A stretch of DNA of 64,000 bases from Candidatus Bathyarchaeia archaeon (lineage in GTDB: Archaea; Thermoproteota; Bathyarchaeia; 40CM-2-53-6): positions 128,001 to 192,000 of the forward strand of contig JBEKVV010000001.1 in NCBI GenBank assembly GCA_049513715.1, written 5' to 3'. The position numbers are program-made. This document shows, piece by piece, positions 39,001-42,000 of this stretch. Each line of letters starts with the position of its first letter. Position 1 is the stretch's first letter.

Positions 39001-42000
39001 CATCTTGGAAATCTGCGTAATGGCCGCTAACTTTTCCTCCGGGCCCAATCGCTTCCTCTTGTGAGAGGAATTCTGGCATTTCTAGGTCAATGGTGAACGA
39101 GGTACCTGATTGTGGGCTGCCTGAGGTAATGTCTCTTCTAATTGATGTGAGAAAATAGGTTAGTGCCTTCGTCGTATCATCCAATTTCCTTCCTCGAACG
39201 TACGGGGCAAGGAATGTGTTGAGATATTCGAGCGTTTGTTCACCGGAGACTTCTCCCGAACCCATGTCGAGCACTTGTCTCACCAGAGTCAAAGCTCCCT
39301 CGAATGTTTCTGGAGGCTCTGTTCCTGGAAGGCTATTGCGTAAGAAATAGCGAAGGTCATGGACGATTTCGTTTGGTTTGAGTATCCAATTCTCTAGGTT
39401 TGCGATGTGTATCGATCCTGATAGGTGTGCGTCAGCCAGCTTATGGGGTAAGCAATTCAGCAAGACATACTCGGAGAGCACGGATTTAGCGGAAGAACGA
39501 TGAACGAAGTCCGCACTTAACTGGCTATCGCCCGCATTTCGAATAAGCTGAGCGACATCATAGACGGGCATGCCGAGCCTCGTGAGTTTGTGGCGATACT
39601 CCTCCAGCCTCTTCTCGATGAGGATGGCGTTTACGAATTCGCGAATCAAAGGCGCTGTCAAGTACACAGTCCTCAACCTAATGAGGCGGTCCTCTGCTTC
39701 CGCGGCAATTTCATCAGCAATTTCCTGCGGGACACCTGCCTCCACCACAAGGGATTTGGCGATCTTGTTGCGGTGAAATTCCTCTATCGCGAGTCTGGAT
39801 GTACGAACGTAGAGTTTACCGCGCTTCACGTTCACATATTCGTCCATGTCTCTTGCGAATGAGACGATCATTCGGCCGAGTTCAGTCAGCTCGTACTTCT
39901 TTGTCTTCTTATCCAGCGTGACCAAGCCAGTGCTTGTTAGACTTCGAAGATGGTAGACGAATTTGCCAGCGTCGCGGACAGGGTCGAGCTTCAGTTGAAA
40001 CATTATTTCTGTATACTGGAGTGAGCCCTTGATCGAAAGCAGTCGCAATATTTGTAGTCGAACGGGCGCCGACGCGGCGTCAAAGATGCTGGCACCGACT
40101 CTCTCCGATGAACGTTGCAACTCAATACCGCCTAGAAGGTGAATTACAAGTACTATAGGCATGGGGTTATGTTTAAAAAATTGTAGTTGCGTGCATCTCG
40201 ACAGATTACGTACAGTTTATTTGAGATTAATCAAGCCGTGGCGCCGTCGACAGCCGAGAGTGGAGATGAAGAACTTGGGCGAATTGCGCATGAACGAAGC
40301 CGATTACGCGAAACTCGCAGAGCTAGAAGACGCCTTCGAAAGGAAGGACCTTGAATACTTCAAGACTTTCCTAGGAAAATCGAGTGGTCTTCCCTTGCTG
40401 TTGCGTGTTCACTCTGTCTGCATGTTAGAGCACATGGGAAACGAAGACATTGTGAAGGCACTTGGTCAGGTCTTGAGAGATGACCCTAGCCCACTAACAA
40501 GGCATGAAGCAGCCTTCACCCCGGCCAGCTAGGTTTCCGCTCAGCCGTACCAGCACTTGTTGAAGCAATGCTCGAGGACGAGAGCCCCATTGTACGGCAT
40601 GAGTCGGCGGTAGCCCTAAGCTCGATTGGGGCAGAAGATGCGCTCCCTGAACTGGAACGAGCAATCAACGATAAGAACGAGGATGTCAGCAACTCTGCTC
40701 TTATTGCCTCCGAATATTTGACCTATCTGAGTCGAAAACGTGATAGTGTCAGCAAAGTCGGAGCGACCTTGAAACCTAAGATTCGCCTATAGTAAGGAAT
40801 CTGCTGCGCGTCGGTATGAGGCACTGGCCGCGATCGCGGAAGGATTTAAGGAAGTGGATGTTTCCTTGGGGATTAGGGGCGGTGGTCCAGACCGCGAGTC
40901 AACCCGCGTGGGGACAACTTGGTCTAAGATAGCGCGAGACGCCTTAAAACCGGTCTCGGGGCCAGTTGCCTGAAACGGCGAGCACACCGGTGATCGAGGG
41001 TTCAAAATGATCGCAAACGATCATGACAATCCCTCCCGCCCCACCAATATGATGAGAACAAAGCCAAGATGGACGGCCTCCTTAATGGTGAACCTCAAGC
41101 TGAATGGGCTCTGAGGGAAATGCGGGGATGCAAATGAGGCTTCGAACGGTCACTGCTCTATTTGGATTGATTTTCATCGTCACGCAAGCAACAGCGCAAC
41201 CTCACATTTACGCTCAAATCGTTGATCCGCAACTGCAAAGCCGTCTCTCAAGACTTGAAGATTTCCTAGTGAATCAATTCAATGCCACAGTCGGATTAGT
41301 CAGGGAATCACCTGACCATTCAATCAGTCGAGACTACTGGCTCCTGTCAGATAATTTAATCGCCATGCATGTCTTAGCGAAAGATCACCCAGAGATCGCG
41401 GTAAGAATCAATCAGACTATGCAGAAATTCGGAATATTCACCGACGGCCTACACGAAGCACTATTCGGAGCTGCCATACCGCTGCTCCCATACACGCCAA
41501 TAGTCAAGGTGGCCGAAAATGATTCATACCTTGTGAAAGTTGAGGTCAGAAGCAATGAGACGGGGAAGCTGCAACCGGACTGGACCGAATACGCTGACCT
41601 CTCAATCTACGCTGCGCTGAGCGCTCACAATACGGGCAACGATCAGCTCGCAATCTACTATTTCAACCGAGCCTTACAGATGTGGAATGGCGCGGGACTA
41701 TGGGACCGCCCAACACAGGAAGACGGATTCTATACGACGAGTAAACTCGCGTTGCTCATGTACGCGGCTGACATGCTGAATCAAACAATTCCCTACAGGA
41801 CCACGCTTGAAGACCATATTTGGCTATTCCAAAGGGAGGATGGCGGCATACGGTCGCACTACTTGGGTAATTTGACTTCGAACAGGGAAGCGAACAGTGA
41901 AACCGCTGGCCTAGGCCTCTTAGCCTATCAATACAAAATCCAGAAGGACATTCTCCAAGCAAACAGACAGGCGCAGATAATCGCAGAACAGCAAGCAGCA

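Follow-up and report, generated by a model that had tools for sequence, protein, structure and literature searches.

The window, a 64,000-nt stretch of a contig from a Candidatus Bathyarchaeia archaeon, contains a gene broken by a one-base deletion that is likely, judged from homology, to be the pseudogene of a homodimeric archaeal deoxyhypusine hydroxylase (DOHH; for the eukaryotic enzyme we take the EC number to be 1.14.99.29). Intact orthologues are single-copy proteins of approximately 150–190 aa whose sequences match one four-hairpin lobe of eukaryotic DOHH, and modelling suggests that this half-size family probably works as a DOHH-like homodimer outside the canonical two-lobe DOHH. We also report a new link to oxygen: all 50 carriers in a 300-genome sample of the phylum have an A-type cytochrome c oxidase, and coxAB and the gene are both lost from the window genome and from a second member of its genus, a pattern from which two genus members depart.

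A recent, fixed pseudogene in the window

The broken gene comprises approximately 172 codons (40275–40792) that are now read in two frames (Table 1). One frame opens at a TTG at 40275, the position that agrees with the starts of the relatives (an ATG at 40266 is also in frame), passes through the first His-Glu motif and closes at a TAG at 40530–40532, and the other runs from approximately 40523 through the second motif to a TAG at 40790–40792. The deletion sits just 3′ of the first motif and splits the helix that follows it, so that the window genome has no intact reading frame of the half-size family. At the loci of all 19 relatives compared, the junction was read in a single frame and the codon at 40521–40522 has one additional base. 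The frames and the relatives bear out the proposal of the earlier note that two adjacent gene calls, g00194 and g00195, are one gene split by a frameshift.

Table 1. Features of the broken gene and its flanks in the window.
Feature	Position	Strand	Remark
Divergent neighbour ORF: ArsR-like winged-helix, ATP-cone and NrdD-like	37847..40162	-	Syntenic-site marker across genus g1
5′ piece of the broken gene	40275..40520	+	N-terminal helix, first helical hairpins, first His-Glu motif
His-Glu motif 1	40503..40508	+	Counterpart of human H56-E57 / H207-E208
Frameshift	40521..40522	+	One base short against 19/19 relatives
3′ piece of the broken gene	40523..40792	+	Conserved Gly-Gln, second His-Glu motif, last hairpin
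His-Glu motif 2	40598..40603	+	Counterpart of human H89-E90 / H240-E241
tRNA-Pro(CGG) gene	40876..41046	+	Four introns; downstream neighbour

Whether the break was a pseudogene or an assembly error had been left unchecked in the earlier note. Contigs from four runs, which are among the 24 listed with the stretch, spanned it entirely with no gap and no differing letter (depth 36–60, three different years). These are peat and wetland metagenomes from 2017–2020, assembled separately from short reads, and any of the four may itself be the source of the assembly; no RNA run was listed as containing the stretch. Agreement among four separate assemblies indicates that the deletion is fixed in this population and that an assembly slip is unlikely, and we rejected assembly error because all four runs gave the same gap-free sequence. 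The break is also recent, since the broken copy carries 3 changes at 87 otherwise invariant columns, inside the range of 0–3 seen in the 14 intact copies of the genus.

A genome-wide surplus of broken genes was likewise rejected as the cause. None of 196 sampled orthologue pairs, taken from 400 kb of genome G045, was frameshifted. Eight were flagged for stops. We inspected three of these: in two, the stops fell outside the gene or at its very end, and the third was a weak match over part of the gene.

That the window copy still functions, either by programmed frameshifting or as two complementing pieces, would fit the otherwise open pieces, their retained motifs and the small number of changes at invariant columns. 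We nevertheless regard it as extremely improbable, because the break cuts the helix following motif 1 and plain decay is seen in other members of the genus (G044 and G051). Programmed frameshifting itself was rejected: the 92 bases before the stop hold no slippery heptamer of the X_XXY_YYZ type, and the break is found in no relative. The window gene is thus a recent, fixed pseudogene.

On the divergent side, the NrdD-like ORF scores 237 bits against an NrdD cut-off of 326 and is conserved across the genus; we use it as a position marker and claim no functional link to the broken gene. Downstream, the tRNA-Pro(CGG) gene holds four introns of the bulge-helix-bulge type at 40891–40917, 40931–40948, 40961–40984 and 41007–41029 (27, 18, 24 and 23 nt), and Rfam and ARAGORN gave no match on the unspliced element. 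All 14 sequences tried, one from the window and 13 from other loci of the genus (2 wrongly picked stretches were left out), can be parsed into this four-intron layout, each spliced form being called tRNA-Pro(CGG). Farther on, 1.5 kb downstream of the broken gene, lies a spermidine-synthase-like ORF (42330–43085, minus strand) that scores below the family cut-offs; none was seen close to the gene at 98 other loci.

The half-size family and the eukaryotic DOHH lobe

In a PDB profile search, human DOHH (4d4z) was again the best natural match (E 9.7e-34, profile 22–150 against chain 159–286) and was again outscored by artificial HEAT repeats, here 7 proteins, both as stated in the earlier note. 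The two human lobes each align colinearly with the archaeal protein, including the first-hairpin Arg, motif 1 and the following Leu-Gly-Gln, and against one of the four-motif DOHH-like proteins described below hhalign gave a probability of 98.7 (117 columns, 34% identity). All 120 homologues from a shared-word search limited to 92–296 aa have both His-Glu motifs and the Gly-Gln that comes next, as do 80/80 and 78/78 (158/158) homologues found by motif patterns, for which the count is circular. The alignment and the 120 homologues support the original description of the protein as one half of human DOHH with both motifs kept. In the closed frames of 278 homologues, motif 1 lies 84–112 residues from the stop, which indicates that the members are single lobes.

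The Gly-Gln pair (G77-Q78) is invariant in alignment A2, and the Gly occurs in all 278 homologues; one genus member (L004) has Ser. This Gly corresponds to human G214. In a passage of PMC9117371, that residue is counted with those on the substrate side, alongside the four His-Glu motifs (H56-E57/H89-E90 and H207-E208/H240-E241). By Pfam, the half-size protein exceeds the cut-offs of the generic HEAT_2 and HEAT_PBS families; against CpcE, CpcF, NblB, CpeY and PRK09687 it reached 25–38 bits, far from the cut-offs of 220–600 for whole-protein membership.

The AlphaFold monomer (pLDDT 94.7) has ten helices and superposes in Foldseek on 4d4z with an rmsd of 1.9 over 128 columns, an all-helical HEAT superhelix that is not specific to DOHH. 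A fold search returned 4d4z at Z 13.1 (rmsd 4.3, 144 aligned) and artificial alpha-Reps at up to Z 20.7, and we rejected it as a discriminator for DOHH because generic repeats rank first. The homodimer put forward in the earlier note gained support from modelling: with two Fe, the predicted dimer scored 0.95 versus 0.01 for the best of three controls, with runs agreeing in at least 95% of contacts, a pLDDT of 95 and an interface that includes His70, Glu71 and His102. Of 30 solved dimers 20 pass the mark used here, against 1 of 23 monomers; these counts hold only roughly for this case, and the iron did not enter the score. The two-lobe dyad of 4D4Z is itself a solved structure, so that likeness to it may account for the pass.

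To place the family among other His-Glu HEAT lobes, we searched 1.84 billion representatives with a profile. This returned four-motif proteins, which we read as eukaryotic DOHH by their architecture, and among the best 150 rows 109 were proteins of more than 600 aa, nearly all lacking the motifs. A shared-word search, which is weak for this purpose, found no longer, fused relatives; the profile search did return some. One tandem two-lobe member of the half-size family was found (P0127, 363 aa, four motifs), and with this exception no member has an eight-hairpin two-lobe dyad with four motifs in one chain.

Two further groups came to light. Some Nitrosopumilus-type genomes carry a second half-size His-Glu HEAT paralogue (L052:1076-1621, L053:886-1380 and L054:846-1358) that lacks the Gly after motif 1 and adjoins a membrane-protein gene in two of the three loci; a tandem form of it, P0164, also lacks the Gly. 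Another group has Gly-Glu (P0222, P0229, P0233, P0251, P0252 and P0254), with single-lobe and tandem members, one of them named Candidatus Woesearchaeota.

Unlike the paralogue and the Gly-Glu group, the half-size family keeps the eukaryote-type Leu/Met-Gly-Gln after motif 1. In an unrooted lobe tree (51 rows by 135 columns; one of the two P0229 lobes, and P0256, left out), each of the four groups forms one side of a branch, with support of 98/92 for the half-size family, 95/91 for the eukaryotic lobes, 97/95 for the Gly-Glu group and 100/100 for the Nitrosopumilus paralogue, and the branching order among them is an open fork. The tree argues that the half-size family is not a fragment nested in eukaryotic DOHH and that tandem fusion arose several times, and the four-group fork suggests that the His-Glu HEAT lobes are a wider superfamily.

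These data also bear on whether one lobe is inactive alone, either requiring a different partner lobe or serving as a metal-free PBS-lyase-type scaffold whose His-Glu pairs are structural. The generic Pfam matches and the second lobe of some Nitrosopumilus-type genomes would suit such a role, which we hold to be very unlikely, because that lobe is absent from the window genome and most carriers have one match, generic repeats lack His-Glu, the homodimer model passes and a self-tandem exists.

Distribution, gene neighbourhood and cytochrome c oxidase

Intact copies in the family of the window genome, previously counted in 13 of 20 genomes, were matched in 38 of 58 other genomes: 15/22 in genus g1, 20/22 in g2, 1/1 in g3, 2/3 in g4 and 0/10 in g5, where a broad profile again found none in five genomes. 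For two homologues, the NCBI host names are Bathyarchaeia or Bathyarchaeota. A 300-genome sample of the phylum contained 50 carriers at E below 1e-36 (f13 41/43, f21 7/11 and f36 2), and in five other sample genomes only generic HEAT matches were seen (E ≥ 3e-13). We infer that f13 is Nitrosopumilaceae and f21 Caldarchaeum-type, which would be the two further families in which intact copies had been noted; by title, most of the 80 best loci among at least 542 in GTDB belong to Nitrosopumilus, Nitrosotenuis and Candidatus Caldarchaeum. The gene occurs in 184 of 251 Nitrososphaeria genomes, a tally that includes two unpublished ones (G447 and G546). The distribution is housekeeping-like in four families (142/146, 26/30, 7/7 and 3/3); three more have 4/9, 1/1 and 1/1, and seven others have none. 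One carrier genome is of only 0.8 Mb, and most carriers have one match, that is, a single copy.

Gene neighbours vary, including the NrdD-like ORF, trm5, a thiol-oxidoreductase-like ORF, Sua5 and, rarely, dhs. The order of the gene before trm5, reported earlier for genus g2, was seen again there and in 15 of 98 further loci. The window genome encodes both the substrate aIF5A and DHS: aIF5A, in which the conserved Lys motif is present, is located together with one dhs on a different contig, and a second dhs lies elsewhere. Among 80 named loci, dhs was within 8 kb of the gene in five, namely four Caldarchaeum-type loci (5.5–8 kb away) and L051, where the gene stands head-to-head with a PRK00805-like dhs at a distance of 75 bp, this dhs in turn lying next to a PRK01221 dhs (L058 is the same sequence and was counted once with L051). 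Neither dhs nor aIF5A was near the gene in the 98 further loci, aIF5A was near it in none of the 80 named loci either, and in five more genomes the dhs genes were far from the gene or on other contigs.

The earlier claim that the gene is not beside dhs or aIF5A therefore stands for aIF5A and falls for dhs, given the one head-to-head genome. A conserved operon with dhs or aIF5A was rejected, as there is one adjacent locus and four nearby ones of a single lineage; the dhs neighbourhood link is real but thin. The two deoxyhypusine synthase paralogues at L051:6102-8084 are of different types and lie tail to tail.

Counting as an A-type oxidase any COX1 match at E ≤ 1e-90, a cut-off that leaves out divergent oxidases, we found one in 81 of the 300 sampled genomes; all 50 carriers were among these and none among the other 219. 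With only three families represented among the carriers, and with divergent oxidases excluded by the cut-off, these are few lineages and not 50 points. The result agrees with the earlier suggestion that the further families are aerobes. The gene was absent from 31 of the 81 oxidase-bearing genomes. In the window's own family, 34 of 48 genomes in g1–g4 have an A-type oxidase, and in g5, which lacks the gene, the sole strong oxidase match has four stops, so that no intact A-type oxidase was found; according to a passage of PMC10321748, one genus of soil Bathyarchaeia that possesses cytochrome c oxidase is (micro)aerobic.

Compared with G045, the window genome has lost approximately 2.5 kb at C1:315 kb, with coxB and most of coxA; its cox site (G000:C1:314100-315700) holds a 48-residue C-terminal remnant, and the neighbours are frameshifted. 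The single oxidase-family gene that is intact in this genome has no His-Pro-Glu-Val-Tyr motif. The genome still gives a match to cytochrome bd subunit I, which points to a shift to lower oxygen and not necessarily to none. At L138:874-3096 (G000:C9) we observed a heme-copper oxidase-family pair, also present in G036, in which Trp-Trp-Gly-Leu-Asp replaces the copper-binding His motif of subunit I and subunit II lacks the usual Cys ligands; proteins of this kind are presumably NO reductase-like.

A second case is G044 (99% complete), on another branch of the marker tree, which has no COX1 match and no cox genes at the site and whose gene carries a frameshift and a deletion of approximately 285 bp that spans the two motifs; cox and the gene are both present in its sister G055. 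G044 lost coxAB and the gene independently of the window genome. Exceptions are G043, in which cox is deleted and the gene kept (its very close sister G046 has both), G051, which kept cox and lost most of the gene, and G056, which has cox and yielded no copy of the gene. In G039 a frameshift falls late in the gene, downstream of the two motifs. The cox locus was deleted separately in G043 and in G044. Four genomes were dropped from the loss count, G047, G049 and G052 because the flanking NrdD-like gene is missing too and G057 because of a run of N at the site. Of the three cox losses in the genus that could be scored, two are accompanied by decay of the gene; this co-loss is suggestive but should not be read as statistical evidence.

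The conserved motifs, the modelled dimer and the joint loss with coxAB would fit equally well a homodimeric di-iron HEAT protein that is tied to life with oxygen and acts on a target other than aIF5A, for example in other protein or tRNA hydroxylation, in O2/peroxide/NO handling, in iron handling or as an oxidase-assembly helper. Other His-Glu HEAT groups without the Gly or the Gln exist, neighbours are variable and seldom include dhs, and some archaea in which no copy of the gene was found are reported to contain hypusine, so that another route exists. Against this stand the eukaryote-type Leu/Met-Gly-Gln, kept here and missing from the paralogue and the Gly-Glu group, and the single known substrate of the eukaryotic enzyme, which is present together with DHS; the oxidase-assembly version is further opposed by the oxidase-bearing genomes that lack the gene. 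On balance we consider a target other than aIF5A unlikely.

Proposed role and comparison with known systems

For a DOHH-like role, we propose that two chains pair about a two-fold axis, as the dimer model suggests, and that the His-Glu motifs of both would build one di-iron site, in an arrangement that would resemble the two lobes of human DOHH. By homology, this site would activate O2 and hydroxylate deoxyhypusine on aIF5A after DHS has acted. Because hydroxylation needs O2, the gene would be kept in oxidase-bearing lineages and would tend to decay when the aa3-type oxidase is given up. The window genome appears to be such a case, with aIF5A then presumably staying deoxyhypusinated.

A bolder proposal, over which we are evenly balanced, is that eukaryotic DOHH arose by tandem duplication of an enzyme whose single-lobe, homodimeric form survives in this family; that true hypusine is made on aIF5A, in the presence of O2, by ammonia oxidisers, Caldarchaeum-type archaea and soil Bathyarchaeia; and that peat lineages such as that of the window genome, which drop the gene along with cytochrome c oxidase, serve as natural knock-outs for a step of translation-factor maturation that is gated by oxygen.

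The earlier note cited PMC7773846 for the statement that no archaeal DOHH homologue has been identified. For the literature this stands as far as the relevant passages of PMC5178350 (2016), PMC6105217 (2018), PMC7773846 (2020) and PMC8153317 (2021) go, which state that none was found; it fails for automatic annotation, which names many members DOHH. The term 'DOHH' is absent from a 2026 review, passages of PMC4218817 and PMC10833072 gave nothing further, and we found no published paper on the half-size family, although supplementary tables of the core genome of ammonia oxidisers may list it. JGI gives the name 'deoxyhypusine monooxygenase' to 19 of the 120 homologues listed, and the ESM Atlas holds Nitrososphaerota clusters and a 162-aa euryarchaeal cluster named '(DOHH)'. 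Archaea with reported hypusine include Sulfolobus, Acidianus, Thermoproteus and Pyrodictium. As a control, Sulfolobus acidocaldarius gave no HEAT_2 match, so the half-size family leaves hypusine in those archaea unexplained.

The half-size family offers a concrete small DOHH candidate, present in nearly all sampled ammonia-oxidising archaea, and the broken copy is a natural loss coinciding with the coxAB deletion. If the family is active, the eukaryotic pseudo-dimer would have a free-living homodimeric counterpart, archaeal hypusination would be tied to oxygen, and two archaeal routes to hypusine would be needed, since Sulfolobus gave no match.

Among known systems, the archaeal entries automatically annotated as 'deoxyhypusine monooxygenase' are the same proteins, under pipeline names for which we found no experiment, dimer model or paper. 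PBS-lyase-type HEAT proteins and alpha-Reps (MTH187, YibA, CpcE/F and NblB) share the repeat and the fold and score as high as or higher than DOHH by sequence sum and by structure. Unlike the half-size family, the PBS-lyase-type proteins lack His-Glu pairs, vary in repeat number and have no fixed single-copy distribution, and their best genome matches lie at E ≥ 4e-15 versus ≤ 1e-36 for the family.

Eukaryotic DOHH (human 4D4Z/4D50; yeast Lia1) differs in having two lobes and four motifs in one chain, whereas the archaeal chain is one lobe with two motifs and no inter-lobe linker; motif spacing is 33 in eukaryotes and 32 in the archaeal family, which has Cys where eukaryotes have Phe in the first hairpin, and the copy in the window genome is broken. 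The two have in common HEAT hairpins with His-Glu on consecutive hairpins, a Gly six residues after the first Glu, and an alignment that is colinear over one whole lobe.
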